Shown: positions 161 to 57,106 of the stretch, one piece after another | Position numbering within the stretch: position 1 is the first letter of the stretch | How the letters are laid out: each line of letters opens with the position of its first letter | NCBI GenBank assembly: GCA_910585935.1 | Contig: CAJUHN010000001.1 | Span: 1 to 63,661, forward strand | Source of the DNA: an uncultured Lachnospiraceae bacterium | Lineage (GTDB): Bacteria; Bacillota; Clostridia; Lachnospirales; Lachnospiraceae | DNA length: 63,661 nucleotides | Direction of reading: 5' to 3' | Position numbers and translations under genes: made by a program | Notes under the pieces: model-generated | What the model saw: only the letters and a program-made list of their open reading frames with translations | What the model was told of the DNA's origin: nothing | Databases searched by the model: none

Positions 161-1150
161 TTACTCATTCCATATCTTTATCTGCCAAAATGCAATGGTT
201 CTTCTTTTCCAAGTATAAGTGATATAAACATCTTCTCCTTTTGTTATAATAGCAGGATAAGAAAACTCAGCATTTTCTATATTTTTAGTGCATGGCACGT
301 AATCTAAATTTTGTGGCTCGCACCATGTTTTTCCATTATCTTTTGAGATACAAAATGCAATAGGAGATCGAGCTGCCCAATTTCCAGAAATGGGGTTATA
401 TACTAATATCAGCAGTCCATTCTCCATTCTGACTAAATCTATTCCACAATTATTATTTGGTAGAGATGTTTTTTCTGCTATACTCCATGTTTTTCCATTG
501 TCAGAGGAAGTACTTTGGTAAATGAAGCCTTCACTACTCCTCATGAACATATGTACTTCTCCGCTTTGATCTTGCCATAAAGTTGGCTGTATGATACCTG
601 TTCCTGTTAGAGTGTTTCTTTTGATTGGAATATTTTGGCTTCTTTCCCATGTCAGTCCGCCATCTTTAGAACAGTCTACAAAACAATTCCACTCCTCTTT
701 TTCTGTAGATGCAGGAGCTAAAATACTGTTATCCTTTAATATAATACATTTATTTTTTACTGGTCCTCTACCCCCTTTATCTCCTTTTACTAATTCTTTC
801 TCTTCACTCCATGTCATTCCATTATCCATAGATATTTTAACCATTGTCTTCCATTCTGGTATCTCACTTCCCACTTTATAAAAAAGAAATAACTTCTTTT
901 CTAATGTCAAAAGAACTGGATTCCAACAAGGAATATTTTCACAATCTGCTATCTTTCTTGGAACACTCCATTCTATTCCTTCCTGATAAGAAAACCATAT
1001 CGCTACGTCTGTCGCTTTTTCTTTTGTTCCGGCAAACCAAGCTACTCCTAAGTTTCCATTTGGCAGAAAACAAATCGTAGAAGCATGACATTGTTTAAAA
1101 TACCTTTCTGATTCAAATAAATGCTGATGATTTAATACTTGATATTTCAT
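161..1150 (-). CDS. BNR/Asp-box exo-alpha-sialidase-like protein (GH33-like), no obvious signal peptide
   Basis: Four Asp-box motifs are present (SMDNGMTWS, SKDGGLTWE, SSDNGKTWS, SKDNGKTWC). I moved the start to the ATG at 1150, which is preceded by GGAGAG; the ORF track start is 1162. Confidence 0.8.
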   Translation of the reverse strand: MKYQVLNHQHLFESERYFKQCHASTICFLPNGNLGVAWFAGTKEKATDVAIWFSYQEGIEWSVPRKIADCENIPCWNPVLLTLEKKLFLFYKVGSEIPEWKTMVKISMDNGMTWSEEKELVKGDKGGRGPVKNKCIILKDNSILAPASTEKEEWNCFVDCSKDGGLTWERSQNIPIKRNTLTGTGIIQPTLWQDQSGEVHMFMRSSEGFIYQSTSSDNGKTWSIAEKTSLPNNNCGIDLVRMENGLLILVYNPISGNWAARSPIAFCISKDNGKTWCEPQNLDYVPCTKNIENAEFSYPAIITKGEDVYITYTWKRRTIAFWQIKIWNE

Positions 1151-1240
1151 AATGCTCTCCATTCTTGTATTACTTTTCTTAAAACATAAAAGTTTATTTT
1201 TTTATCATAAATCAGCCAAATATCATTTGTTATTTTTCTT

Positions 1241-2364: not shown

Positions 2365-2533
2365 CTTTGACCAGAGGTTCGCATCGAGAAGAAAGTATTC
2401 CAACGAAACCTCGCTTTCGCTCCGTTCCAGACGTAACGGACACTAAATTCGCAGCCCCTAACAGGACTGCTCATTAAGTGCCGACGTCTTCCAAGGGGTT
2501 TCTTTTGGAATACTTTCTTCTCGATGCTAGTTT
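2365..2533 (+). repeat. Structured intergenic repeat, copy F1 (forward sense)
   Basis: CTTTGACCAGAGGTTCGC ... GCTAGTTT. The outer helix GCATCGAGAAGAAAGTATTCC / GGAATACTTTCTTCTCGATGC pairs 21/21, and the conserved core is CCAACGAA..CGCTCCGTTCCAGACGTAA..ACTAAATTCGCAG..CTCATTAAGTGCC.ACGTCTTCCAAGGGG. Confidence 0.9.
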
Positions 2534-2592
2534 ATCACATAGGCAAATTTATAAAATATCATAATCGTTATTAGGTTATAGTAGCTACTTTT

Positions 2593-2653
2593 CAACGAAT
2601 CATGAAAGGTTATCACACCCTATTATGAAAATAAAAATCTATTTTCGTAGCAA
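2593..2653 (-). repeat. 61-bp module shared with 7895-7956 (opposite orientation relative to the flanking doublet)
   Basis: The reverse complement reads TTGCTACGAAAATAGATTTTTATTTTCATAATAGGGTGTGATAACCTTTCATGATTCGTTG. It differs from the 7895-7956 copy at 2 positions. Confidence 0.85.
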
Positions 2654-2687
2654 TGTACAAAAATAAAGAAATCCCAGAATAGCCAAA

Positions 2688-2845
2688 AAACTAGCAAAGG
2701 CAAGGAATAATTCCAAAAGAAGCCCCTTGGAAGACGTCGGCACTTAATGAGCAAACCCATAAGGGTTCGCGAATTTAGTACCGCTACGTCTGGAACGGAG
2801 CGAAAGCGCGGCTTCGTTGGAATATTCCTTGCCGCCGCGAACCTT
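2688..2845 (-). repeat. Structured intergenic repeat, copy R1 (reverse sense); forms doublet 1 with F1
   Basis: AAACTAGC ... GCGAACCTT. The outer helix is GGCAAGGAATAATTCC / GGAATATTCCTTGCC and the apical hairpin variant is GCAAACCCATAAGGGTTCGC. Confidence 0.9.
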
Positions 2846-7487: not shown

Positions 7488-7655
7488 AAGGGTTTCCGCA
7501 TAGGGAAGAAAGGATTCCAACGAAGCTGCGCTCTCGCTCCGTTCCAGACGTAATGGTACTAAATTCGCAATTCCCGCTTCTTGCGGGTTTGCTCATTAAG
7601 TGCCGACGTCTTCCAAGGGGCTTCTTTTGGAATCCTTTCTTCCCTATGCTAGTTT
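7488..7655 (+). repeat. Structured intergenic repeat, copy F2
   Basis: AAGGGTTTCCGC ... GCTAGTTT. The outer helix GCATAGGGAAGAAAGGATTCC / GGAATCCTTTCTTCCCTATGC pairs 21/21, and the apical hairpin is CCCGCTTCTTGCGGG. Confidence 0.9.
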
Positions 7656-7894
7656 TTGACCCTTCTACTTTTTATATCTATCATAATTTCCATCTTTAAC
7701 CTTATCGCCGTTCATACTCTACCATTGTAAAATGGGGGGATTTTTTTATTCTACTGGAAGTAAAAAATTCTATGCGTCACATAATTTAAAAGAATATATT
7801 CTTAACCTATTAGTTTTAAAGGATGAGTTAAAACTACAAAACTAACAGTTACCACAACATATATTTTTTGTTATAATCAACAGGTATATGGACG

Positions 7895-7956
7895 TTGCTA
7901 CGAAAATAGATTTTTATTTTCATAATAGGCTGTGATAACCTTTCATGATTTGTTGA
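7895..7956 (+). repeat. 62-bp module shared with 2593-2653
   Basis: TTGCTACGAAAATAGATTTTTATTTTCATAATAGGCTGTGATAACCTTTCATGATTTGTTGA. It contains the hairpin GAAAATA-GATTTT-TATTTTC. Confidence 0.85.
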
Positions 7957-8347
7957 TAATAGTATAATTGTATGTATAGATATATATTTATTTAGGAATA
8001 TAAGCCTTTTTTTATTTTTGATAAGTTCATATTATGAATATGGATGCTGTGAATTACCTATTATCTAAAATCAATGAACTTCGTTCTTTTTAAACTTCAC
8101 AAGCTACTATATCCACAGATGTTAATATGCGTTGTTTATGTTATACAACGGTTATAATATATCATACTTATATAGATATCACCATAAAAATTCAATTACT
8201 TCAAATTTTCACAATTCCTAATTCATATTCATAATCTGACCTTTCCTCCTATTTTTATAGATCATGTTTTCTCATATCCATTCAGAATAGCAAATAAAGT
8301 TATCATCTATCTGTTATTGAAAATATTTCTATAGTAGAATATTCAAC

Positions 8348-8509
8348 AAACTAGCGCAGGGAAGAACCTATTCCAAAAGAAGCCCCTTGGAAGACGTTGG
8401 AACTTAATGAGCAGTTCCGTAAGGGTCTGCGAATTTAGTGTCCACTACGTCTGGAACGGAGTGGGAGCGCGGCTTCGTTGGAATAGGTTCTTCCCTGCGC
8501 GGAAACCCT
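8348..8509 (-). repeat. Structured intergenic repeat, copy R2; forms doublet 2 with F2
   Basis: AAACTAGC ... GCGGAAACCCT. The outer helix GCGCAGGGAAGAACCTATTCC / GGAATAGGTTCTTCCCTGCGC pairs 21/21. Confidence 0.9.
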
Positions 8510-43107: not shown

Positions 43108-43269
43108 AAAGGTTCGCAGAGAGAAGGAACGATTCCAACGAAGTCGCGCTCTCGCTCCGTTCCAGACGTAGTGGACACTAAGTTCACAGCCCGTAATCGG
43201 TCTGTTCACTAAGTGCCAACGTCTTCCAAGGGACTTCTTTTGGAATTCGTTCCTTCTCTCTGCTAGTTT
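43108..43269 (+). repeat. Structured intergenic repeat, copy F3
   Basis: AAAGGTTCGC ... GCTAGTTT. The outer helix is GCAGAGAGAAGGAACGATTCC / GGAATTCGTTCCTTCTCTCTGC with one bulge. The middle helix has the compensated variant ACTAAGT / ACTAAGT. Confidence 0.9.
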
Positions 43270-43376
43270 TTTGTTTTGGCTGGTTTATAAAAAATAATTG
43301 ACATAATCAAATAAAACCTCATTTCATAACGAACTTAACGAACCATCGTGTCTTACAGACTCGCCTATGATATAAT

Positions 43377-43533
43377 CTAGCGCAGGAACTCCTCTATTCC
43401 GAAAGAAGACCCTTAGAAGACGTTGGTACTTAATAAGCAGTCCTGTTAGGGGCTGCGAATTTAGTACCGCGTAGTCTTACACGGAGCGGGAGCGCGGCTT
43501 CGTTGGAATAGAGGAGTTCCTGCGCGAACCTTT
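43377..43533 (-). repeat. Structured intergenic repeat, copy R3 (most divergent core); forms doublet 3 with F3
   Basis: CTAGC ... GCGAACCTTT. The outer helix GCGCAGGAACTCCTCTATTCC / GGAATAGAGGAGTTCCTGCGC pairs 21/21. Confidence 0.85.
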
Positions 43534-43939
43534 CGCCAATTTCTTCCCACATCCACAAATGTTTGAATCGTGAAAAAATGTATTTTATGGAAAATTCATG
43601 TAGACTTTTTATCATATAAGAGGTAAAATATAATAGAATTTGTTTGTGCAAAAAGTCTTACCTTTTTGCATATCTAAAAATCTAATATAGTACCTTATAT
43701 ATCATCCAATATCTATAAACAAAGTAATAACTTTCGTAAACTATTATTCAACTTTTCTATTATTATCATGAAATTCTCTTTTCAAAAAGCAGAAAAATCA
43801 ATCAATTATTACATCATTATATTAATTTTTGAGTAAACTATAGCCTTATGAATGATTCTATATCATAAAAATAAAACATATAAATGTTGTTTTATTGATA
43901 ATATAGTTTTACTTGATTATTAATAGTATAATAAAGTAT

Positions 43940-43990
43940 CCCAAAAGAAACTTCTTGAAAGATATTGAGAGCGAAAGCACCTCTTTGCTG
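43940..43990 (-). repeat. Possible degenerate, internally deleted remnant of the repeat family
   Basis: CCCAAAAGAAACTTCTTGAAAGATATTGAGAGCGAAAGCACC resembles CCAAAAGAAGCCCCTTGGAAGACGT...GGAGCGAAAGCGCGG. Confidence 0.25.
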
Positions 43991-44079
43991 TAATATATAG
44001 TACTTTCTTGTTACGATACCCCTTTGATTGTAAGACAATCTAAACTATACCCTCACCAAAAACTATTTTCCTCTTAATC

Positions 44080-44109
44080 TTGACAAACTTCCTTATTATA
44101 AGATAGAAT
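44080..44109 (+). promoter_or_regulatory. Putative SigA promoter of prfC (TTGACA-18-TAGAAT)
   Basis: TTGACA at 44080-44085 and TAGAAT at 44104-44109. Confidence 0.5.
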
Positions 44110-44189
44110 AAGTTGTTTACTAAATCACTATACTAATGTAGTATTTTAAATAAAAAATTTATATCACTATATACGCAAGGAGGTCATTC

Positions 44190-45797
44190 ATGTCAACTTT
44201 AACTGATGAAATAAAAAGACGTCGTACATTTGCTATCATCTCTCACCCTGATGCTGGGAAAACTACACTAACAGAAAAATTTCTTCTCTATGGTGGTGCA
44301 ATCAACCTCGCAGGATCTGTAAAAGGCAAAGCCACCGCACGTCATGCCATATCGGACTGGATGGAAATTGAGAAAGAACGTGGTATTTCTGTCACTTCTT
44401 CTGTTCTGCAATTTAATTATAATAACTATTGTATTAATATATTGGATACTCCCGGACATCAAGATTTCTCAGAAGACACTTATCGTACCTTAATGGCGGC
44501 GGATTCCGCTGTTATGGTCATCGACGGTTCTAAAGGTGTAGAAGCCCAAACCAGAAAGCTCTTTAAGGTATGTGTCATGCGCCATATCCCTATCTTTACT
44601 TTTATCAATAAAATGGATCGTGATGCTAATGACACCTTTGACCTTTTAGATGAAATCGAAAAAGAACTCGGCATCGCTACCTGTCCTATTAACTGGCCTA
44701 TTGGCTCTGGAAAGAATTTTAAAGGCGTCTATGATCGTGAAACAAAAAAAGTCATGCTATTTTCTGATACAGAAAAAGGAACAAAAGAAGGGACAGAATT
44801 AGAAATTTCTATTGATGACCCAGAGCTTTCAAACTATATCCCTTCTTTTTCTATGGATACTTTATTAGAAGAAATAGAACTTTTAGATGGTGCGAGCGCG
44901 GAATTTGATTTAGAAAAAGTGAGCTGTGGCGAACTTTCTCCTGTATTCTTCGGTTCAGCTCTCACAAACTTCGGTGTAGAAACATTTTTACAGCATTTTT
45001 TAAATATGACTTCTTCCCCGCTGCCTAGAACGGCAAATATTCAAAATACCGTCGCTAAAATTGACCCATTTAACCCTGATTTTTCCGCTTTTGTCTTTAA
45101 AATTCAGGCGAATATGAACAAAGCGCATCGAGATAGAATCGCTTTTATGCGCATCTGCTCCGGCAAATTTCTATCTGACATGGAAGTTTATCATGTACAG
45201 GGCAATCGCAAAATGCGCCTTTCTCAGCCTCAGCAGCTCATGGCACAAGAACGCAAAGTAATTGAAGAAGCTTATGCCGGAGATATCATCGGTGTCTTCG
45301 ATCCGGGCATTTTCTCCATTGGTGACACCATTACTGTTCCTTCTAACTCTTCTTGCCCATTTGCATTTGAAGGTATTCCTACTTTTGCTCCAGAACATTT
45401 TGCTCGCGTCCGTCAAATGGATACCATGAAGCGAAAACAATTTGTTAAAGGAATCACTCAAATTGCACAGGAAGGTGCGATTCAAATCTTCCAAGAATAT
45501 CATACTGGTATGGAAGAAATTATTGTAGGAGTGGTCGGTGTACTGCAGTTTGATGTATTAAAATATCGTCTGGAAAATGAATATAAAGTGGATATCCGTT
45601 TAGAAACTCTTCCTTATGAACATATTCGTTGGATAGAAAATAAAGATATAGATTTAGATAAAATCAACGGAACTTCTGATATGAAGAAAATTCAGGATCT
45701 CAAAGGAAATCCTCTACTCCTATTCATTAATAGCTGGAGTGTAGGAATGACTTTAGATCGCAATAAGGGACTCATTCTCTCTGAATTTGGCAGATAA
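44190..45797 (+). CDS. prfC: Peptide chain release factor 3
   Basis: RRTFAIISHPDAGKTTLTEKFLLYGGAI, DTPGHQDF and NKMDR GTPase motifs; 535 aa. Confidence 0.95.
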   Translation: MSTLTDEIKRRRTFAIISHPDAGKTTLTEKFLLYGGAINLAGSVKGKATARHAISDWMEIEKERGISVTSSVLQFNYNNYCINILDTPGHQDFSEDTYRTLMAADSAVMVIDGSKGVEAQTRKLFKVCVMRHIPIFTFINKMDRDANDTFDLLDEIEKELGIATCPINWPIGSGKNFKGVYDRETKKVMLFSDTEKGTKEGTELEISIDDPELSNYIPSFSMDTLLEEIELLDGASAEFDLEKVSCGELSPVFFGSALTNFGVETFLQHFLNMTSSPLPRTANIQNTVAKIDPFNPDFSAFVFKIQANMNKAHRDRIAFMRICSGKFLSDMEVYHVQGNRKMRLSQPQQLMAQERKVIEEAYAGDIIGVFDPGIFSIGDTITVPSNSSCPFAFEGIPTFAPEHFARVRQMDTMKRKQFVKGITQIAQEGAIQIFQEYHTGMEEIIVGVVGVLQFDVLKYRLENEYKVDIRLETLPYEHIRWIENKDIDLDKINGTSDMKKIQDLKGNPLLLFINSWSVGMTLDRNKGLILSEFGR

Positions 45798-47332: not shown

Positions 47333-49921
47333 ATGAAGATAAAACATAAATTAAAAGGACAGTATATTCTCTATTTACTTTCCTTTCTCATTCCTGTTTG
47401 TATTCTTATTATCCTTTATATTTTACGAGGTATTTATCCTTTTGGAAAACAATGTTTTCTAAGAAGTGATATGTATCACCAATACGCTCCTTTTCTGGCA
47501 GCTTTTCAGGAAAAATTAAAGACAGGCGGAGATTTGACCTATTCTTGGGATATCGGAATGGGAATTAATTTCACTGCTCTCTATGCTTATTACTTAGCCA
47601 CACCCATTAACTGGATACTGATTTTATTCTCTCAAAAACATTTGATAGAACTTATGAGTATTTTTATTATTTTTAAAATAGGGCTTTCTGGTTTTACTTT
47701 TTCTTATTATCTCTCTCACCATTTAAAAAACAAAAGCCCTTATATTGCAGCTATTTCTATCTTTTATGCTCTATCTTCTTATATCTGTGCTTATAGTTGG
47801 AATCTGATGTGGCTGGATTGTATTTGGCTCTTTCCTCTTATTATGCTCGGATTAGAACGATTGATAAAAGAAGGAAAATGTGTTCTTTATTGTATTACTT
47901 TAGGACTTTGTATTCTCTCTAACTATTATATTTCTATTATGGTTTGTATTTTCTGTGTATTATATTTTATAGTAGAGATGATCGCCCAAAAAGATTTTCA
48001 TGAATGGTGGAAGAAATGTTTGCGTTTTGCACTCTATTCTGCACTCGCAGGAGGGTTTGCCGCATTTTTATTGATACCAGAGTTTTTCGCTCTTCAGTTG
48101 ACAGTTTCTGGAGATATGAATTTTCCTAAGAACTTAACTCGTTACTTCTCTATCTTAGAAATGTTATCCAGACAGTTGATGTTAGTAGACCCTGCTGTAT
48201 TTTCTGCTCATGAACCTAATATTTATTCTGGTATTTTTGTATTTTTACTCGTTCCATTGTATGCTTTAAATCCTAAAGTCAATACAAAAGAAAAAATCGG
48301 AAAATTTGTATTATTATTTATCTTTTATTTGAGTTTCAATTTAAACATTCCTAATTATATTTGGCATGGCTTTCATTTTCCAAATAGCCTTCCCTGCAGA
48401 CAGAGTTTTATTTATACGTTTCTGATTCTGACGATGACATATGAAGGATTTTTGTATGTAAAACGAGCCTCAAATAAAGAGATTTATTCTATTTTCGGAG
48501 TTATTATCATCTTATTCTTAATCATTGAGCAGATATTTTCCGGAGATAAATATTCTTATAGTATTGTTTATGTGAGCATTTTATTCCTCTCTCTTTATGG
48601 TATCGTGTTTGGATTATATCGAAATCGGACAATTCGATCTATTTTTTGTTGTATCCTATTCTTTTCCATCACTATACTAGAAGCATTTGTGAACACCAAT
48701 AAAACCAGTGTAAACACAACAGGAAGAACCTCTTATGTGAGTGATAATGAAACGATTTCCAATATTTTAGAGTATATAGAAGAAAATGATACTTCCTTTT
48801 TCCGTGTAGAAAAGTTAAAACGCAGAACAAAGAATGACAGTGCTTGGCATCATTATCATGGGGTTTCTTTATTTTCTTCTACTGCAAATGCAGGGTTGAG
48901 CAAATTTTTAAGTAATATGGGATGTGAAGAATCCACAAACTCTTATTCCTACTATGGTTCTACTCCTATAACAGAGGGTATGTTATCTGTAAAATATCTA
49001 TTAAGCAATAATATTATAGAAGATACTCCTCTCAGAGAAATGTTTGTCTATGAGGATTCTATTTATTTATATAAAAATAATAATATCCTCCCATTGGGTT
49101 TTTTAGTTCCTAATACATTGGAAGAAGAATGGGTGATGGACAATTCAAACCCATTTTATGTACAAAATAATTATGCAGAACTGACCACTGGTATTTCTCC
49201 TATTTTCTCTGCAATGGACTATAGTACTTCAGAAAACAGTATGGATATTTATGTAGAAAAAGATCAGAATGTTTATGTTTATATCACATCAGAAGGAGAA
49301 GATTTCATCGCTAATTATTATGATGGAAATGGGATAGAGTTAGAGGAAATGGAAGCTTCCACTTTCAATGGAGTAAAGCATAAATATATCATGGACTTAG
49401 GATATTGTAAAGCTGGAACTACAATCACTCTCTCCGCTACTGGACAAAATTCTATCCATGCCTATGTTTATGGTTTAAATTTAGATAATTTCAAACATTA
49501 TCATGAAATTATGGCAAACCAAGTAATGGAAGGAATTAGTTATGATGATACACACGTCAAAGGAAAAGTAACCGCACAAGAAGATATGCTTTTATTTACT
49601 TCTATTATTTATGAAAAAGGCTGGACAGCAAAAGTAGACGGAAAAGAGGTAGAAGTTCTTCCATTTAAAGATGCCTTTGTTTCTATTCCTATATCGGCTG
49701 GAACACACACGATTGAATTATCTTATACTCCTTATGGATATAGTATAGGTATTTTGATTTCCCTTTTGAGTTTGAGTATTTTTGTAATGATTTGCATCTT
49801 TAAAGCTTCTAAAAACCGAAAAAAAGAGAAAAAACAAGTAGAAATATTGGAAGAGGAAGAAGTAGTAGATGAAGATGAAGAAATAGAACAAGAAACAGAC
49901 GAAACAACAGATACTTTATGA
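47333..49921 (+). CDS. YfhO-family polytopic membrane glycosyltransferase
   Basis: 862 aa. Many N-terminal TM helices, an extracytoplasmic C-terminal domain, a final TM and an acidic tail. Gene order is GT2-GtrA-YfhO. Confidence 0.8.
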   Translation: MKIKHKLKGQYILYLLSFLIPVCILIILYILRGIYPFGKQCFLRSDMYHQYAPFLAAFQEKLKTGGDLTYSWDIGMGINFTALYAYYLATPINWILILFSQKHLIELMSIFIIFKIGLSGFTFSYYLSHHLKNKSPYIAAISIFYALSSYICAYSWNLMWLDCIWLFPLIMLGLERLIKEGKCVLYCITLGLCILSNYYISIMVCIFCVLYFIVEMIAQKDFHEWWKKCLRFALYSALAGGFAAFLLIPEFFALQLTVSGDMNFPKNLTRYFSILEMLSRQLMLVDPAVFSAHEPNIYSGIFVFLLVPLYALNPKVNTKEKIGKFVLLFIFYLSFNLNIPNYIWHGFHFPNSLPCRQSFIYTFLILTMTYEGFLYVKRASNKEIYSIFGVIIILFLIIEQIFSGDKYSYSIVYVSILFLSLYGIVFGLYRNRTIRSIFCCILFFSITILEAFVNTNKTSVNTTGRTSYVSDNETISNILEYIEENDTSFFRVEKLKRRTKNDSAWHHYHGVSLFSSTANAGLSKFLSNMGCEESTNSYSYYGSTPITEGMLSVKYLLSNNIIEDTPLREMFVYEDSIYLYKNNNILPLGFLVPNTLEEEWVMDNSNPFYVQNNYAELTTGISPIFSAMDYSTSENSMDIYVEKDQNVYVYITSEGEDFIANYYDGNGIELEEMEASTFNGVKHKYIMDLGYCKAGTTITLSATGQNSIHAYVYGLNLDNFKHYHEIMANQVMEGISYDDTHVKGKVTAQEDMLLFTSIIYEKGWTAKVDGKEVEVLPFKDAFVSIPISAGTHTIELSYTPYGYSIGILISLLSLSIFVMICIFKASKNRKKEKKQVEILEEEEVVDEDEEIEQETDETTDTL

Positions 49922-49942
49922 GATAAGTATGTTTGCAGAACA

Positions 49943-50108
49943 CTTTGACCAAAGGTTCGCACGGCAAGAAATTTTCCAACGAAGCCGCGCTTTCGCTCCG
50001 TTCCAGACGTAACGGTACTAAATTCGCAGCCCCTAACAGGACTGCTCATTAAGTGCCAACGTCTTCCAAGGGGCTTCTTTTGGAATAATTTCTTGCCTTA
50101 GCTAGTTT
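49943..50108 (+). repeat. Structured intergenic repeat, copy F4 (starts 22 nt after the yfhO stop)
   Basis: CTTTGACCAAAGGTTCGC ... GCTAGTTT. The 5' flank matches that of F1, and the apical hairpin is GCAGCCCCTAACAGGACTGC. Confidence 0.9.
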
Positions 50109-50261
50109 ATTCGTTATTCTAGAGAAAAAATATATTATTTCTTGTTGGATTTTTTAATTATTTTATAGACTTATAAAAAAATATAAATATTATTTCAAAT
50201 ACTGTTTCTACTTGAATTTTTTAATTTTTTATCAAAACTGCTTTTTTGTAGAATTATTAAC

Positions 50262-50421
50262 AAACTAGCCCCTGTAAGCACCTATTCCAAAAGAAACCCC
50301 TTGGAAGACGTTGGTACTTAATGAGCGGTGCGGTGACGCGCCGAGAATTTAGTACCACTACGTCTGGAACGGAGCGGGAGCGCGGTTTCGTTGGAATAGG
50401 TGCTTACAGGGGCGAATCTTT
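50262..50421 (-). repeat. Structured intergenic repeat, copy R4; forms doublet 4 with F4
   Basis: AAACTAGC ... GCGAATCTTT. The outer helix GCCCCTGTAAGCACCTATTCC / GGAATAGGTGCTTACAGGGGC pairs 21/21. The apical variant is unique: CGGTGCGGTGACGCGCCG. Confidence 0.9.
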
Positions 50422-50527
50422 TTATCAAAATGATTTGCAAGATATCTTATATACTTAAACTTTGTATTCGTTAGATTTTTATGAAATAAGAATGTATTTT
50501 AATTTACTTATAAAAGGGAGGTTTCAA

Positions 50528-51511
50528 ATGTCTATAAAAGTATCTGTCATTATTCCTGTATATAATTCTGAAAAAACATTAGTTTCCTGTATTGGAAATT
50601 TGGTTCATCAAACATTAACTGACATAGAATTATTATTTGTAAATGATTGTTCCACAGATAATAGTCTTTCTATTTTAAAAAATTGTTCTTCTCAATTCCC
50701 TGATATCGTACATGTTCTTTCTACTCAAGAAAATTTAGGAGCAGGTGGAGCGCGTAATTTAGCTTTAGAAATCGCTAAAGGTGAATATATTGGCTTTGTA
50801 GATAGCGATGATTTAGCAGATACTACCATGTTTGAAAAACTTTATCAAATGGCTGTTTCTGAAAATTATGATATCGTTGATTGTGGTTTTTATTACCAGA
50901 GTAAAGATATAAGTATTCTCTATACTGCAGATGAAGACACACACTTCTTAACAGATACTAAGAGGAATCATTTAATTTGTGGCGGAGGTTATTTATGGAG
51001 CAAATTAATTCGCAGAGAATTGATAGAAAAATATCATTTGCGATTTCGAGAGCATGTTATTTTAGAAGATATGGATTTTCTTATGTATTTATTCGCAGTT
51101 TCTTCTAATATCGGAAATTTGCATGAGGTTCTATATATATATAAAGATTCTCCTTCTTCTGCTTCTAAAGAAAAAGATATGGAAAAGTATTGTAATAATA
51201 TTATGCAGGCTATGAGAGCTATTTATGAAAAGATGCATATACTTCTAAACTATTCCAACATAAAATTATCTGTAGAATATAGTATAATACAATTATATTC
51301 CTATGGTATTAATTGTTGTTTAAAGTATCGTCGTTCCAATAATACTTCTCTTATTTTAAAATATCTTTCTCAATTACGCCATTTAAAAAGAGATTATATT
51401 TCTATAGATTATAAAAATAATCCATATGTGCAAAAAAAGATTCCAGATTTAGATCAAAAATTGATGCAAAAAAATGATATCGATCCTCATATTTTGGTAG
51501 AAAACTCATGA
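50528..51511 (+). CDS. Family 2 glycosyltransferase
   Basis: MSIKVSVIIPVYNSEKTL, VNDCSTDNS and DSDD blocks. I placed the start at 50528 after AGGGAGG; the ORF track start is 50462. Confidence 0.8.
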   Translation: MSIKVSVIIPVYNSEKTLVSCIGNLVHQTLTDIELLFVNDCSTDNSLSILKNCSSQFPDIVHVLSTQENLGAGGARNLALEIAKGEYIGFVDSDDLADTTMFEKLYQMAVSENYDIVDCGFYYQSKDISILYTADEDTHFLTDTKRNHLICGGGYLWSKLIRRELIEKYHLRFREHVILEDMDFLMYLFAVSSNIGNLHEVLYIYKDSPSSASKEKDMEKYCNNIMQAMRAIYEKMHILLNYSNIKLSVEYSIIQLYSYGINCCLKYRRSNNTSLILKYLSQLRHLKRDYISIDYKNNPYVQKKIPDLDQKLMQKNDIDPHILVENS

Positions 51512-51610
51512 AAGATTTCTCTTGATTTTCCTACTTGTACATTTTCTATTTTGTGTTATAATGAATCCAATAACTTTGTTAAAACAATATCAATCTGAAG
51601 GAGATTCACT

Positions 51611-53065
51611 ATGGAGGAAAGAAATTTAACACTATTGACAGATTTATATGAATTGACTATGATGCAGGGCTATTTCAAAAATCAGACAAATGAAACTGTA
51701 ATTTTTGATGCCTTTTATCGTACAAATCCCAGTGGAAGTGGGTATGCGATTGCAGCGGGTTTAGATCAGGTGATAGATTATATTAAAAATTTACATTTTT
51801 CAAAAGAGGATATTTCTTATTTAAAAAGTCTTTCTTTATTTGAAGATGATTTTTTGGAATATCTGTCTGATTTTAAATTCACAGGGAGCATTTATGCTAT
51901 TCCAGAAGGCACTGTAGTTTTTCCTAGAGAACCATTAGTGAAAGTGATCGCCTCTGCGATGGAAGCTCAATTAGTAGAAACTGCTATTTTAAATATTATC
52001 AATCATCAGAGTTTAATCGCTACAAAAGCTTCTCGTGTTGTATATGCAGCGCAGGGAGATGGAGTTATGGAATTTGGTCTGCGCCGTGCTCAAGGACCAG
52101 ATGCGGGCACTTGGGGAGCTAGAGCTGCTATGATCGGAGGTTGTATTGGTACATCTAATGTACTCGCTGGACAGCTTTTTGATGTGCCTGTAAAGGGAAC
52201 ACATGCCCACAGTTGGATCATGAGTTTTCCTGATGAATATACTGCTTTTAAAAAATATGCAGAAATCTATCCAGATGCTTGTTTATTATTAGTGGATACT
52301 TATGATACTCTAAATTCAGGTGTTCCTAATGCTATTCGAGTATTTACGGAAATGAGAGAAGCTGGTATTCCCCTCACTCTTTATGGAATCCGATTGGATA
52401 GTGGAGATCTAGCTTATTTATCAAAAGAAGCTAGAAAGATGTTAGATGAAGCTGGATTTTCAGATGCTGTAATTTCTGCTTCCAGCGATTTAGATGAATA
52501 CCTAATTGACAGTTTAAAAACACAAGGGTCTGCTATTACTTCTTGGGGAGTCGGTACAAATTTAATCACTTCTAAAGATTGTCCTGCTTTTGGCGGTGTG
52601 TATAAATTAGCGGCTATCAAAGATAAACATACAGGAAAGTTTATTCCTAAAATCAAACTTTCTGAAAATACAGAAAAAATAACAAATCCTGGAAATAAGA
52701 CTATTTTTCGATTATATGAAAAAGAAACTGGAAAGATAAAGGCAGATCTGATCGCTCTTGTAGGTGAAAAATTTGATAGTAACTATTCTTTGTTGATTTT
52801 CGATCCAATTGAAACTTGGAAAAAAACATTATTAAAACCTAATACTTATACTATTAGAGAATTGATGATTCCTATTTTTATAGATGGTGAATGTGTTTAT
52901 ACTTCTCCAAAAGTTATGGATATCCGAAAGTATTGTATGCAGGAATTAGATACTCTTTGGGATGAAACTAGACGTTTGGTAAATCCTCATAAAGTTCATG
53001 TGGATTTATCTAACGAACTTTATCAAATAAAGAAACAACTTTTAGATTCTTTTCATCAATCTTAA
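51611..53065 (+). CDS. pncB: Nicotinate phosphoribosyltransferase
   Basis: LLTDLYELTMMQGYF N-terminus and EFGLRRAQG block; 484 aa. Confidence 0.9.
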   Translation: MEERNLTLLTDLYELTMMQGYFKNQTNETVIFDAFYRTNPSGSGYAIAAGLDQVIDYIKNLHFSKEDISYLKSLSLFEDDFLEYLSDFKFTGSIYAIPEGTVVFPREPLVKVIASAMEAQLVETAILNIINHQSLIATKASRVVYAAQGDGVMEFGLRRAQGPDAGTWGARAAMIGGCIGTSNVLAGQLFDVPVKGTHAHSWIMSFPDEYTAFKKYAEIYPDACLLLVDTYDTLNSGVPNAIRVFTEMREAGIPLTLYGIRLDSGDLAYLSKEARKMLDEAGFSDAVISASSDLDEYLIDSLKTQGSAITSWGVGTNLITSKDCPAFGGVYKLAAIKDKHTGKFIPKIKLSENTEKITNPGNKTIFRLYEKETGKIKADLIALVGEKFDSNYSLLIFDPIETWKKTLLKPNTYTIRELMIPIFIDGECVYTSPKVMDIRKYCMQELDTLWDETRRLVNPHKVHVDLSNELYQIKKQLLDSFHQS

Positions 53066-53126
53066 TAATTATTTTTTATAGTTTTATAGCTGTTTTAGCT
53101 TAATATGTATTAAGGTTTTAGGTTTT

Positions 53127-53248
53127 GCTCAGGTTAGAGAACTATTTTAAAAGACGTTTTTAAAAATACATTAGCTTATCATTTTGTATTTATTATATAT
53201 TTTTTAGAACAAAGGCGTGATTTTATTCAAATAATTCCTAACCTGAGC
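53127..53248. repeat. 11-bp inverted repeat with 100-nt loop downstream of pncB
   Basis: GCTCAGGTTAG (53127-53137) pairs with CTAACCTGAGC (53238-53248), followed by TGTTTTT. Confidence 0.6.
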
Positions 53249-53352
53249 TGTTTTTACTATTCTAAGAAAAGGGGCTGCTTTTTAACATTCCTTCTAAATA
53301 AAAAACAGAATGATAATTTATTTTTTTAAATTTATGATGATAGGATGATATT

Positions 53353-54213
53353 ATGCGATTAGAAACGAATCAACTGACAGAACAACAAAAAAAAGAAATA
53401 TATGAACTTGTCACTATCTGTAATAAAACAGATCGTTTACATGGCAATGCTTTTTTAGAGCAAGAACTCAATGTTTATTCTGATGTTCCTTGCTTTTTTC
53501 TCTATTATGATAATAAAAATTTGGTCAGTTTTTTATCTCTTTTCTTTTCTTGTGTAAATGAAGTAGAAATTAGTGCTTATACTCACCCAGACTATCGCAG
53601 ACAAGGGCACTTTTCCAATTTATTGTGTTGTGCACTTTCCTTATTGAAATCTCTTCCTATAAAAAGAATTCTTTTTATGACAGAGCCTCATTGTAATCAT
53701 ACTATAAAAACATTATCTTCTCTTCATGCGAAATATCTATATTCTGATTACTCTATGACATTATTTCGGAATTGTCCTTATATACTTTCTGAACTTGACT
53801 TTTCTTTATCACTTGCTAATGAAGAAGATTTCAAAGTTTTAAGTTCTATTCATTCAGAAGCTTTTGGAGTAGAGAAAAATATCTCGAAAGATTTCGTGCT
53901 TGATATTTTCTCGCAAGATTCTGTTCTTTGTTATAAATTTTTATTAAAAAATAATATAATTGGATTCTGTAATGTCCTACAAAATGCTTCTTCTATTTTT
54001 CTTTTTGGAATTTGTATTAAAAAAAGAGTTCAAAATCAGGGATATGGGGGAATTATGATGAAATTTTTATTAAATGATTTACTATTATTAAAAAAATCTA
54101 TCACTCTTCAGGTGAATAGTCTTAATATACCCGCACTTCATCTATATCAACGGCTCGGTTTCTCTTCTACCATATGTTTTGACTCTTATTCTATAGAAAA
54201 TAAATGTTTCTAA
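53353..54213 (+). CDS. Tandem GNAT-fold N-acetyltransferase
   Basis: Two acetyl-CoA-binding type blocks, YRRQGHFSNLL and QNQGYGGIMM. Confidence 0.6.
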   Translation: MRLETNQLTEQQKKEIYELVTICNKTDRLHGNAFLEQELNVYSDVPCFFLYYDNKNLVSFLSLFFSCVNEVEISAYTHPDYRRQGHFSNLLCCALSLLKSLPIKRILFMTEPHCNHTIKTLSSLHAKYLYSDYSMTLFRNCPYILSELDFSLSLANEEDFKVLSSIHSEAFGVEKNISKDFVLDIFSQDSVLCYKFLLKNNIIGFCNVLQNASSIFLFGICIKKRVQNQGYGGIMMKFLLNDLLLLKKSITLQVNSLNIPALHLYQRLGFSSTICFDSYSIENKCF

Positions 54214-54393
54214 TATGCTTTTATATTATGAAAAATTATTTAAATACGATCTATTCACTAACTTTTTTGAATATTATAACGAAAAGGCTAAATAATAATA
54301 AGTTTAAGTTATCAACATTTTTTTAATAATTGACATTATCTTCTTATTATTATACAATAACAATTAAGGAATTTTATAAAAGGAGGCTATTTT

Positions 54394-55155
54394 ATGGGTA
54401 AATTAGATGGCAAAGTTGCTATTATTACTGGTGGAGGCAGAGGTATTGGATATGGAATCTCTACTGCATTCGCAAAAGAAGGGGCTAATTTAGTTTTGAC
54501 AGGAAGAACTCTTGCAACATTAGAAAAAGCAAAAGAAGAACTAGAAAAGGCATATGGAATTGAAGTTTTAGTTGTTACAGCAGATGGAGGAAATGAAGAA
54601 GCTGTCAATAATGTTATTCAAAAAGCAGTTGAAAAGTTTGGTCGTATTGATACTGTTGTCAATAATGCTCAAGTTTCTAAATCAGGAACTATGTTAGCAG
54701 ACCATACAAAAGAAGATTTTGATGTGGCAATTTATTCTGGTCTATATGCTACCTTCTTTTATATGAAAGCAGCTTTCCCATATTTAAAAGAGTCAAAAGG
54801 TTCTGTGGTTAATTTCGCATCTGGAGCAGGATTATTTGGCAGATTAGGACAATCTTCTTATGCGGCAGCAAAAGAGGGAATTCGTGGAATGTCCAGAGTC
54901 GCTGCTGCAGAATGGGGACCATATGGAATTAATGTTAATGTTGTATGTCCACTCGCTATGACAGAGGGATTGGAACAATGGAAGGAAGAACATCCTGATT
55001 TATTTGAAAAGACAATTCAGGGTATTCCTCTTGGACGTTTTGCAGATCCGGAAAAAGATATCGGACGTGTTTGTGTGTTCTTAGCTTCTGATGAAGCCAG
55101 CTATGTAACAGGAGAAACTATTACACTTCAAGGCGGAAGCGGATTAAGACCATAA
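54394..55155 (+). CDS. Classical SDR oxidoreductase (FabG-like)
   Basis: GKVAIITGGGRGIG, NNAQ and SYAAAKEG (YxxxK). Confidence 0.8.
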   Translation: MGKLDGKVAIITGGGRGIGYGISTAFAKEGANLVLTGRTLATLEKAKEELEKAYGIEVLVVTADGGNEEAVNNVIQKAVEKFGRIDTVVNNAQVSKSGTMLADHTKEDFDVAIYSGLYATFFYMKAAFPYLKESKGSVVNFASGAGLFGRLGQSSYAAAKEGIRGMSRVAAAEWGPYGINVNVVCPLAMTEGLEQWKEEHPDLFEKTIQGIPLGRFADPEKDIGRVCVFLASDEASYVTGETITLQGGSGLRP

Positions 55156-55408
55156 AGTCTTTTTAGAAAAAAAGGGATATTTCTTAATATTATATTATTA
55201 GGAAATATCCTTTTCTATGTTATTGATATCTTTTTTATAAAATAATTTAATATATTATATCAATAGTACTATAAAGATGTTGTAATAATATTATATAGTA
55301 AAATTCTGGACATTTTTAGAAAATTATAGAACATTTAGAAAATAAAGAAAACTCCTGAAAATACTAGACTTTCTGGAGTTTTTAAATCTTTTTGAAATTG
55401 TTATAAAA

Positions 55409-55801
55409 TTATCTCTTAGAAAATTGAGGCGCACGACGAGCTGCCTTTAAGCCATATTTCTTTCTTTCTTTTGCTCTTGGATCTCTTGTTAAGAAACCTG
55501 CTTTTTTCAGAGTTGGACGATAATCTCCATCTGCCTGTAATAGAGCTCTAGAAATACCATGTCTAATAGCTCCTGCTTGTCCTGTAAAACCACCGCCATG
55601 AACATTAACAAGTACATCAAATTTATCTGAAGTTTCTGTCAATACTAAAGGTTGACGAACAATAACTTTTAAAGTTTCAAGACCAAAATATTCATCCATA
55701 CTTCTTTTATTAATTGTAACATTTCCCTTACCAGGTACTAAATATACTCTAGCAATACTTTTCTTTCTTCTGCCTGTTCCATAAAATTTTGCACTAGCCA
55801 C
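55409..55801 (-). CDS. rpsI: 30S ribosomal protein S9
   Basis: [15 protein letters not shown] ... [19 protein letters not shown] ... RRAPQFSKR. Confidence 0.95.
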
Positions 55802-55826
55802 TGTAATTTCCTCCTTCCATTTTCAC

Positions 55827-56255
55827 CTAAAATGTTAATACTTCTGGCTTTTGAGCTTCATGAACATGCTCTGGTCCAGCATACACATGTAACTTTGTAA
55901 GCATCTGTCTGCCTAAAGGTCCTTTTGGAAGCATTCCCTTTACAGCAAGTTCCATTACTTTTTCTGGTTTCTTTACAAGTAATTTTCTTAAAGTGATTTC
56001 TTTCATACCACCTACATATTCAGAGTGACTATAATAGATTTTCTGATCTAATTTCTTACCTGTCACCTTAATTTTATCTGCGTTAATCACAATTACATGA
56101 TCACCTGTATCAATATGAGGAGTAAAAATAGGTTTATTCTTTCCTCTTAATATCTTTGCAATTTCAGAAGACAAACGTCCTAATGTATGTCCTGTAGCAT
56201 CTACTACATACCATTTTCTTTCAACCTTCTCTGTACTGGCCATAAAACTCTTCAT
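55827..56255 (-). CDS. rplM: 50S ribosomal protein L13
   Basis: [35 protein letters not shown]. Confidence 0.95.
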
Positions 56256-56794
56256 CGGTTTCTGCTACTAAAAACATGTACAAATAGATACATGATAGAT
56301 GAAATAAATCTCATGATACTGCTTCCTCGTGTATACTTTCATAATCATTTTTGATTTACTAATCACAAACTCTTATACACTCCACAGTCATAATTTCCCG
56401 ACTGAACATCGGTACTTTACCTATTCATACTATGATAGGCTTCATCTATATTTTAGCTTTTCCTTTCCTAAATTTTATTTTTCTTTACCCTTAGTTTTTA
56501 GGGCTTTACTACGGAATTTTAGGTGCTTTTGAGTATATTCACTCCCTATTTTTCCTATTCTTAATTATATAAAATTTCAACAATAAAATAACATTTATGA
56601 TAAAATACTTCTACCGGGGCTTTGGCTTGAGTATTTCATTTCTTATTATTATATAATACATACAGTATAGTATTATATAATATTTATTCATATATGTCAA
56701 CCATTTTTTCTATAATAAACACAATAAAAGTAACAGTTCAGACTTTTTATTTCTTATTGCAAAATTCGCTTTTCAAAAAGTAGAACCATCAACA

Positions 56795-56964
56795 AACGAG
56801 CGAAGGCAAGGAAGTATTCCATAAGAAGCCCCTTGGAAGACGTCGGCACTTAATAAGCAAACCCGCAAGAAGCAGGATTTGCGAATTTAGTGTCCGTTAC
56901 GTCTGGAACGGAGCGAGAGCGCGGTTTCGCTGGAATACTTCCTTGCCACAGCGAACCTTTGATG
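56795..56964 (-). repeat. Structured intergenic repeat, copy R5 (solo) between truA and rplM
   Basis: AAACGAGC ... GCGAACCTTTGATG. The outer helix is GGCAAGGAAGTATTCC / GGAATACTTCCTTGCC. The apical hairpin CCCGCAAGAAGCAGG is related to that of F2. Confidence 0.9.
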
Positions 56965-57106
56965 TTCAAATAGACTAAACTGTTACTAATAAAGTAACCA
57001 TTCCACCTTTTTATTCTATAAATATTATAATATTCACTTTTCAAAAAGTAGAAAAATCTATAGTTATAAATACCTTCTATTATTTAACATTATTAGTAAA
57101 ATTTCG

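Follow-up and report, generated by a model that had tools for sequence, protein, structure and literature searches.

Several families of short bacterial repeats that fold into hairpins have been described. Correia/NEMIS of Neisseria, ERIC/IRU of enterobacteria, RUP/BOX/SPRITE of pneumococcus and bcr1 of the Bacillus cereus group are transposable elements of the miniature inverted-repeat kind (MITEs), non-coding intergenic sequences of 100-300 bp that occur in many copies, form stable RNA or DNA hairpins, end in terminal inverted repeats with short target duplications and can supply terminators or processing sites. The repetitive extragenic palindromes (REPs) of E. coli and Pseudomonas are arranged as inverted pairs with two alternating unit types and inter-unit motifs, as bacterial interspersed mosaic elements (BIMEs) or hairpin-forming REP doublets (REPINs); they persist for long at orthologous sites and are accompanied by a REP-associated tyrosine transposase (RAYT), a single-copy Y1 transposase gene beside one pair. 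Here we describe a repeat with likenesses to both groups, found in a 63,661-nt stretch (contig CAJUHN010000001.1; the whole stretch is called the window below) of an uncultured Lachnospiraceae bacterium. It forms inverted doublets of a forward (F) and a reverse (R) copy, such as F4/R4 between yfhO and a family-2 glycosyltransferase (GT2) gene. A literature search found no such repeat described in Clostridia or Lachnospiraceae.

The traits listed for hairpin MITEs recur here, with terminal inverted repeats and putative short target duplications on single-hairpin units and a terminator role that would be shared as well. Unlike those MITEs, the hairpin is branched, its core is deeply conserved in genomes of 30-60% GC, and its stems are locus-specific and covarying. 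Most copies form strict tail-to-tail pairs with distinct inner ends (types A and B) and a variable spacer or cargo, and neither near-identical copies nor insertion polymorphism within the species nor a parent insertion sequence was found in what was sampled. Compared with REPs of 20-40 nt, the units, at 165 nt, have five to six times the length and are branched. In contrast to REPINs, the arms of a doublet are complementary only in the core, the spacer measures 100-3600 nt, single units carry terminal inverted repeats and 8-bp direct repeats, and a population of master sequences is absent; the transposase gene beside one doublet is, unlike RAYT, of IS200 type by sequence and has the repeat on one side only. 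The likeness to BIMEs is architectural (A and B tails, tail-to-tail order, inner and outer flank motifs), with no sequence relation.

Integron attC sites and pdif modules are likewise imperfect palindromes with structure conserved over sequence and a variable apical part, and they bracket small accessory modules, e.g. toxin-antitoxin pairs. However, attC arrays are co-oriented beside an integrase gene, whereas here the orientation alternates and an integrase is lacking; a pdif site measures 28 bp, and no tyrosine recombinase accompanies the elements described here. Judged from sequence features, without a dedicated test, attC sites were rejected on grounds of orientation and the missing integrase, omega, bridge and retron RNAs for want of an adjacent effector gene and because the variable parts pair with each other, a riboswitch or leader because of hundreds of copies in both orientations to genes, and plasmid single-strand origins because the copies are chromosomal and multicopy.

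We conclude that the doublet is a genuine architectural unit. With moderate confidence, we read the family as an ancient MITE/BIME-like element of MITE origin by transposition in trans, now fixed and kept by the genome, where it would probably insulate operons. What sets it apart is a large branched hairpin whose core recurs in distant lineages, the strict A/B tail-to-tail layout and the exchange of cassettes between arms. As a retained MITE it would be a clear Firmicutes counterpart of REP/BIME/REPIN, with unusually good evidence of purifying selection and of recombination between copies.

A branched hairpin in tail-to-tail doublets

The body of the repeat is a branched hairpin of about 165 nt with about 50% GC, in a genome of 30% GC. 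Each copy folds at -59 to -66 kcal/mol (z-score about -6 on either strand) and is built, from the outside inward, of a copy-specific outer stem, a near-invariant core, in which a side hairpin of 3 bp and an internal loop are conserved features, and an apical helix that varies. The strand of a copy is clear, a covariance model giving 160-188 bits in sense and 20-53 bits in antisense. Covariation support for the hairpin is strong. RNAalifold predicted 57 pairs from ten window copies, 23 of them with compensatory changes; in 88 full copies from the window and a related metagenome-assembled genome (MAG), 94.5% of cells were paired, compared with 39-48% when the partner was slid, and double-sided compensatory changes occurred in 35 of the 57 pairs, values that none of 500 shuffles reached. 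The hexamers AGACGT and ACGTCT, perfectly inverted and invariant in the 88 copies, bracket the central segment. The 3' half contains a conserved terminator-like sub-hairpin, and the sense strand ends in GCUAGUUUnUU (DNA: ...GCUAGUUU). A search of the whole window gave the repeat no Rfam match at gathering thresholds, and only palindrome noise was obtained at E up to 10 for 49900-50460.

In addition to the window, 59 genome loci (457 kb) were fetched, the whole sample holding 138 non-overlapping matches to the repeat. By an exact core pattern, the repeat is abundant in the 'uncultured Eubacteriaceae' MAG CANRVK01, a part of which is 96% identical to window positions 47953-56846 and which thus represents the same or a sibling species. 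A diverged form is found in fewer copies in two roe-deer Clostridia MAGs, one Lachnospiraceae MAG and one contig binned as Succinivibrionaceae. In these genomes of 43-60% GC the outer stems are unrelated, yet hardly any change is seen in the core (GCTCTCGCTCCGTTCCAGACGTAGCGGCAC ... TAAGTGCCGACGTCTTCCAAGGG); each of the 13 copies stands alone, with ordinary genes on its sides. Viral contigs, scanned for the exact pattern, and phage and plasmid records, searched by BLAST, gave no matches. Since the core is shared by lineages of 30-60% GC, it lends itself well to a covariance model and to work on its structure and binding. The host, an uncultured gut Clostridia species, was found in hundreds of sample blocks of a metagenome index. 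Many CANRVK01 contigs (L001-L059) start or stop inside a copy of the repeat, which disrupts short-read assemblies and is a main cause of assembly breaks in this species.

Eleven copies lie in the window (Table 1), all at the sites named by the first-pass annotation of this DNA; its five doublets with their spacer lengths were re-located exactly as given, and R5 is the only solo copy, as it had stated. The density corresponds to one copy of about 165 nt (about 220 nt with conserved flanks) per approximately 6 kb, and the family may occupy a few percent of the genome.

The same annotation had held the pairing to be beyond chance, and counts over the window plus 47 loci of the 96%-identical MAG bear this out. 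Among neighbours no more than 1300 nt apart, 34 were arranged tail-to-tail, one in tandem and none head-to-head (binomial p about 1e-19). Gaps between an F copy and a following R copy ranged from 96 to 3629 nt (40 cases), whereas every gap between an R copy and a following F copy (24 cases) measured at least 2477 nt. When doublets were compared with singlets in this sample, about two thirds of the copies with a visible tail side (68 of 102) belonged to doublets. The idea of independently scattered repeats whose pairing in the window is coincidental could draw on the remaining third, which lack a partner within 1300 nt, and on the solo copies of other lineages. However, the polarity count and the asymmetry of the inner ends described below rule out coincidental pairing, and we give this explanation practically no probability.

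Two kinds of inner end were distinguished. Type A reads GCTAGTTTgTTGGCTgTTCTA... and is often followed by a module called A1 (TTTTTGAAAAGnGAATnTCACAATAAC), and type B reads GCTAGTTTgTATCATAGGCAAGTTTAcAAA. Short doublets combine A with B in 10 cases (and in two more with a B-like tail) and A with A in four, and B never with B; B tails were found in none of 34 non-doublet copies (Fisher p=0.003). By this asymmetry the doublet has a left and a right end, like a unit. The proposal that the doublet is the unit which is created or moved therefore stands as far as unit status is concerned, given the strict polarity and the absence of solo B tails, and is not supported as far as ongoing mobility goes, no polymorphism having been found. 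The doublet would be the form with long terminal repeats, running head, hairpin, A tail, spacer, B tail, hairpin and head, and may have been the original mobile unit.

The two arms of a doublet are no closer to each other than to arms of other doublets, mean identity being 0.800 within and 0.806 between doublets; F4 and R4, for example, taken as terminal inverted repeats, are 81% complementary over 155 nt. This agrees with the earlier observation that arms do not share their variable helices, and with its corollary that doublets are not recent inverted duplications of a single copy. Spacers of different doublets are unrelated except for other small repeat modules, e.g. a 71-nt module common, in inverted orientation and with 93% identity, to spacers 1 and 2 (2589-2659 and 7889-7959).

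Single-hairpin units and the neighbouring tnpA gene

R5 and its relatives (L025, L035, L039 and others among the loci) are single-hairpin units of about 260-290 nt. R5-type units are bounded by 15-nt inverted repeats, GTAACAGTTyAGaCT ... AGTCTGAACTGTTAC, and a second subfamily by AATAGGTAATTGCGAAAG ... CTTTCGCAATTACCTATT. Overall, the terminal inverted repeats of single units are 13-17 nt long and start with GTAA, and every occurrence in the sampled part of the genome adjoins a hairpin copy. Three of the four single units with both ends visible are flanked by direct repeats matching at 8/8, 7/8 and 6/8 positions, namely by the 8-mers ATAAAGTA/ATAAAGTA at L025 and AAAGAAAC/AAAGAAGC at L035 and by imperfect 8-nt repeats CTTTATTA/TTTTATTG (minus strand) at R5; one member of the second subfamily has an 11/12 flanking direct repeat. 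Doublet heads start with a related motif, G(T/A)(T/A)ACAyTTTGAC, which in the longer, loosely conserved form G(T/A)(T/A)ACAyTTTGAC..AAAGG, exemplified by the head flank of F4, is found ahead of most copies.

In distant relatives with TruA proteins 76% and 67% identical, the only ones in which empty sites appear, the truA-rplM gaps measure 187 and 100 nt and no copy was present in 58 kb. Such short, copy-free gaps indicate that R5 and its neighbours are insertions in this lineage. Transposon ancestry of the family is plausible on these grounds. Most likely it arose by transposition in trans, as miniature inverted-repeat elements, of which the single-hairpin forms would be those bounded by GTAA-starting inverted repeats of 13-17 nt and target duplications of about 8 bp. 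Of the two labels that the first-pass annotation had offered, MITE ancestry is made plausible by the inverted and direct repeats of single units, while the REPIN label fits less well because the arms are not each other's best partners, master copies are lacking and single units show target duplications.

GTAA-initial ends together with 8-bp duplications are given as the signature of IS66 in PMC11946415, which cites TnCentral, and the single units here show GTAA ends and flanking direct repeats of 8 bp. Unlike in IS66, the ends depart from the canonical GTAAGCG after GTAA, and no IS66-type transposase occurs in the sampled DNA. The resemblance, seen in 4-5 units, is a lead to the possible source of the ends, and the transposase class of the family would be a DDE enzyme, possibly IS66-like. 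The ends by which a cognate transposase would be recognised are GTAACAGTT... and GTAATTGCG... / AATAGGTAATTGCG.... Reading the translations of open reading frames (ORFs) in long spacers revealed no transposase or recombinase, only ordinary genes, toxin-antitoxin pairs and a McrBC-like pair, and a Pfam scan of the neighbours of copies in the GC-richer MAGs detected neither enzyme.

The transposase gene tnpA, next to doublet 1, was typed by Pfam Y1_Tnp and by the IS200 model NF033573 of NCBIfam (126 bits), and its product has no RayT-family match in NCBIfam. Its promoter abuts the head of F1, and the gene occupies one syntenic locus, shared by a sister species and the 8 strain contigs without exception. 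Active relatives, 70-76% identical, consist of tnpA and a 485-aa second gene; unlike them, this tnpA is missing the left-end (LE) hairpin, the second gene (tnpB) and the right end (RE). At the HUH motif, which binds metal in the active site, it has H-T-Y, a tyrosine replacing the second histidine, and its dN/dS of 0.24 indicates purifying selection. Judged by these traits tnpA is an immobilised relic; as a trans-acting partner of the repeats it is a candidate, and an unproven one.

Such a partnership would make this a REPIN/RAYT-type system, in which the hairpins would be giant REP-like palindromes, the inverted doublet the replicative unit, and the adjacent single-copy, immobilised IS200-family TnpA would service the hairpins on single-stranded DNA. 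Y1 transposition of the RAYT or IS200 type makes no target duplications, and none are seen around doublets; Y1 enzymes also recognise imperfect palindromes with conserved bulges. The constant position of tnpA at the F1 head, and its purifying selection in spite of the loss of LE hairpin, tnpB and RE, would fit as well. A single-copy gene with highly abundant flanking repeats agrees with the operational definition of a RAYT, and an IS200 subgroup is on record whose traits resemble those of RAYTs (PMC5581495). Nevertheless we regard this system as rather unlikely. The repeat lies on only one side of tnpA, and at about one element per 6 kb chance adjacency is roughly 10%. The typing as IS200 and the altered HUH motif speak against it, as do the 70-76% identical relatives, which occur as normal tnpA-tnpB insertion sequences in genomes that lack the repeat. 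The 8-bp direct repeats and terminal inverted repeats of single units are not Y1 products, a population of identical master copies is missing (no pair at 98% or above), and the arms of a doublet are not closest relatives. Should TnpA service the repeat after all, domestication of the RAYT kind would be known from one more transposase lineage and one more phylum.

Fixation, recombination and operon boundaries

All examined element sites were filled in the strain contigs (10 covering rplM, 8 tnpA, 7 deacetylase and 6 SEC-C), and so were the sites covered by a sister-species contig, whose genes are 94% identical at the nucleotide level (dS 0.17-0.31) and in which doublets 1 and 2 are orthologous. 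Empty sites, suggested by the first-pass annotation as the thing to look for in related strains, were thus sought in vain in about 30 strain contigs and the sister species, and with every orthologous locus examined filled, which is largely what it had named as a refutation, ongoing mobility gains no support. Divergence per site between the two species is lowest in the core (0.061), higher in the outer stems (0.087) and reaches 0.30 in the apical helix; stems and core evolve 2-4 times more slowly than synonymous sites; outer stems vary among paralogs and are conserved among orthologs. By these rates, stems and core are under purifying selection. In the MAG, the best paralog match of a copy is 85-96% and the mean pairwise identity 76%. 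The family probably amplified anciently, and its copies today appear to be all but fixed in orthologous intergenic positions.

Where strains differ, they do so mostly within the elements, and the flanks are nearly identical. In strain contigs L060, L061 and L065, central segments of 47 nt of F4 and R4 are exactly and reciprocally swapped relative to the window; the spacer is not inverted, and two outer-stem pairs of R4 are changed compensatorily at the same time. An exchange of this kind calls for a pair of crossovers between the inverted arms, to the left and to the right of the central segment. A conversion tract of about 250 nt was seen among strains at R5, three alleles of the apical helix at F3, and a replaced apical part at F5 and, in the MAG, at R4. 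Copies would evolve mainly by recombination with each other, which shuffles the apical helix even between the arms of one doublet.

Could the doublet be an invertible or cassette-exchange module, with a site-specific recombinase acting at AGACGT/ACGTCT that flips the spacer (phase variation) and swaps apical cassettes? The reciprocal F4/R4 exchange, which needs two crossovers within homologies of about 40 nt, would suit such a module, as would the bracketing of the exchanged segment by hexamers unvarying in 88 copies and the apical region as an allelic hot spot at F3, F5, R4 and R5. However, the single-crossover state, recognisable by an inverted spacer or mismatched outer stems, was absent at four doublets from about 30 strain contigs, and a simple inverton was rejected since all strain contigs show one orientation only. 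A metagenome scan for the inverted F4/R4 spacer junction gave 0 matches and had no power, as the normal-junction control also gave 0. The elements have no recombinase gene associated with them, convincing promoters are missing from the spacers, and gene conversion or homologous recombination of the ordinary sort, acting among hundreds of copies, explains the mosaics; such a module is very improbable. We also consider it improbable that the core of about 90 nt is the recognition site of a dedicated protein, be it a recombinase at AGACGT/ACGTCT or a single-strand DNA enzyme (e.g. domesticated TnpA), and that doublets are genome-wide operon-boundary modules whose apical cassettes and spacers are purposely exchanged or inverted. 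If this were true, the repeat would be a new kind of chromosomal device in Clostridia for partitioning and recombination and no dead transposon.

The elements mark the edges of strain-variable DNA. The GT2 gene (50430-51516) is present in the window and 8 strain contigs, in some of them frameshifted to ORFs of 229 aa and 110 aa, and is lacking in contig L031 of the 96%-identical MAG, the deletion there starting about 10 nt beyond the R4 head. Strain L081 (1-2000, compared with window positions 43531-44190) carries different DNA from just past the R3 head onwards; there a 458-aa ORF and a MazE/SpoVT-like gene replace prfC, and synteny breaks exactly at the element. Islets of toxin-antitoxin genes form a third case. 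The F5-R6 island of 2.35 kb (61241-63594) contains a Phd/ParE toxin-antitoxin pair and a truncated kinase-like ORF of 145 aa, and MAG spacers contain ORFs that we take, by eye, to be Phd/YoeB-like pairs and a McrBC-like pair. In strain L062 the 145-aa ORF is the C-terminal portion of a protein-kinase-like gene of 349 aa.

Only one of 90 copies lies inside an ORF of at least 100 aa, and the Pfam-annotated neighbours confirm that doublets sit between operons, as had been noted from the window. Heads face gene ends in 44 cases and gene starts in 41. Where a gene end faces a head, the gap is 31 nt or less in 19 of 44 cases, which leaves no room for another terminator; where a gene start does so, the median gap is 165 nt and holds recognisable promoters outside the doublet. 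In the spacers, a sigma-70 scan gave promoter matches no more often than in shuffled sequence. As heads point outward, transcription arriving from either side first reaches a sense copy with its long hairpin and UAGUUUnUU. The doublet may thereby act as a two-sided terminator or insulator sealing off the spacer, which often carries accessory genes; this role is suggested by sequence and position.

These properties could also belong to a host-selected structural element that is no transposon relic at all, i.e. a transcription terminator or insulator working from both sides, or a DNA site of BIME type between operons (for gyrase, a nucleoid protein or cruciform formation), with the tail-to-tail order maintained by function and copies spread by recombination. 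This is unlikely, albeit the alternative that we take most seriously. The slow evolution of stems and core relative to synonymous sites, a core nearly identical in genomes of 30% and about 60% GC, the strictly intergenic position at operon boundaries in any gene orientation, the many genes that stop 31 nt or less ahead of a head and the GCUAGUUUnUU end with its terminator-like sub-hairpin would all be expected of it. Two copy types, alternating orientation and inter-copy motifs mirror the BIMEs of E. coli, and equal G-U and A-C counts suit a constraint at the DNA level or on both strands. But function leaves unexplained both the terminal inverted and direct repeats of single units and the absence of lone B-type arms. 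A canonical terminator already precedes the element at some genes, e.g. vanZ, and half of the heads face promoters.

Several observations also weigh against the ancient, retained MITE/BIME-like element that we favour. About 0.6 Mb of sampled DNA contained no autonomous element and no transposase with matching ends. Target-site duplications, which the first-pass annotation had proposed to define at the doublets, were not detectable there, matches at every offset being background only (n=9). Neither presence/absence nor spacer-inversion polymorphism occurred in about 30 strain contigs, and no two copies within the MAG are at least 98% identical, so that recent activity is without support. Copying of the doublet as a unit is suggested by the A/B asymmetry, while spacers of different doublets are unrelated, and since only solo copies are seen in the other lineages, pairing may have come later. 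A core so deeply conserved between distant lineages is not usual for a MITE. G-U and A-C mismatches are nearly equal (113 vs 97), which makes the strand-of-folding test uninformative, and neither the folding strand nor RNA and DNA forms can be told apart by it. Half of the copies, finally, face promoters, where a terminator would sit idle.

Features of the window

Table 1. Positions of the repeat copies, their parts and associated features in the window
Feature	Position	Strand	Remarks
tnpA, IS200/IS605-family Y1 transposase, 133 aa	1903-2304	-	
Doublet 1	2376-2843		between tnpA and vanZ; 154-nt spacer; orthologous in sister species
F1	2376-2533	+	type-B tail
R1	2688-2843	-	type-A tail
Doublet 2	7498-8505		between uvrD and SEC-C gene; 692-nt spacer (about 303 nt in sister species)
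F2	7498-7655	+	
R2	8348-8505	-	
Doublet 3	43111-43530		between the divergent genes deacetylase and prfC; 107-nt spacer
F3	43111-43269	+	
R3	43374-43530	-	type-B tail
Second solo A1 module	43755-43802	-	between R3 and prfC
F4/R4 doublet	49943-50421		between yfhO stop codon (49921) and GT2 gene; 153-nt spacer
F4 head flank	49938-49953	+	GAACACTTTGACCAAAGG; starts 17 nt past yfhO stop codon
F4 branched hairpin repeat	49954-50108	+	GGTTCGC ... GCTAGTTT; 167.9 bits
F4 type-A tail module	50109-50125	+	ATTCGTTATTCTAGAG
F4/R4 spacer core	50126-50245		AT-rich; no kin among other spacers
R4 type-A tail module	50246-50261	-	
R4 hairpin repeat	50262-50417	-	188.3 bits
R4 head flank	50418-50435	-	homology with GT2-less MAG stops here
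R5 single-hairpin unit	56730-56986	-	terminal repeats 56972-56986 and 56730-56744 (GTAACAGTTCAGACT); between them head, hairpin, type-A tail and A1 module
R5 hairpin	56794-56957	-	solo
Solo A1 module with terminal-repeat-like sequence	57014-57061	-	just upstream of R5
Doublet 5	61082-63661		2354-nt island
F5	61082-61240	+	
R6	63595-63661	-	cut by window end

The stretch 50113-50257 (145 nt), which includes the F4/R4 spacer core, has about 15% GC. This spacer varies among strains, with a 12-nt deletion in L060, L061 and L065. In the MAG it contains an extra segment of 117 nt (L031:5679-5796) that is lacking in the window and in all strain contigs.

Both solo A1 modules read TTCTACTTTTTGAAAAGnGAATnTCACAATAAC, and the piece upstream of R5 looks like a 3' fragment of another single unit. 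The 5' core of R3 is locally scrambled in the window, with GTGTAAGACTACGC in place of GTTCCAGACGTAGC, which breaks the otherwise invariant AGACGT/ACGTCT helix; it is normal in 4 of 4 other strains. A RAGATH-18 RNA match (RF03064, 48.7 bits, above the gathering score) lies at 56316-56388 on the minus strand, about 60 nt upstream of the rplM-rpsI operon, where a ribosomal-protein leader would sit. Near the 5' end of a BNR-repeat gene (161-1162, minus strand), an AT-rich unit of 22 nt (TTTTATATAAACATAATATTAT) is tandemly duplicated at 1243-1285.

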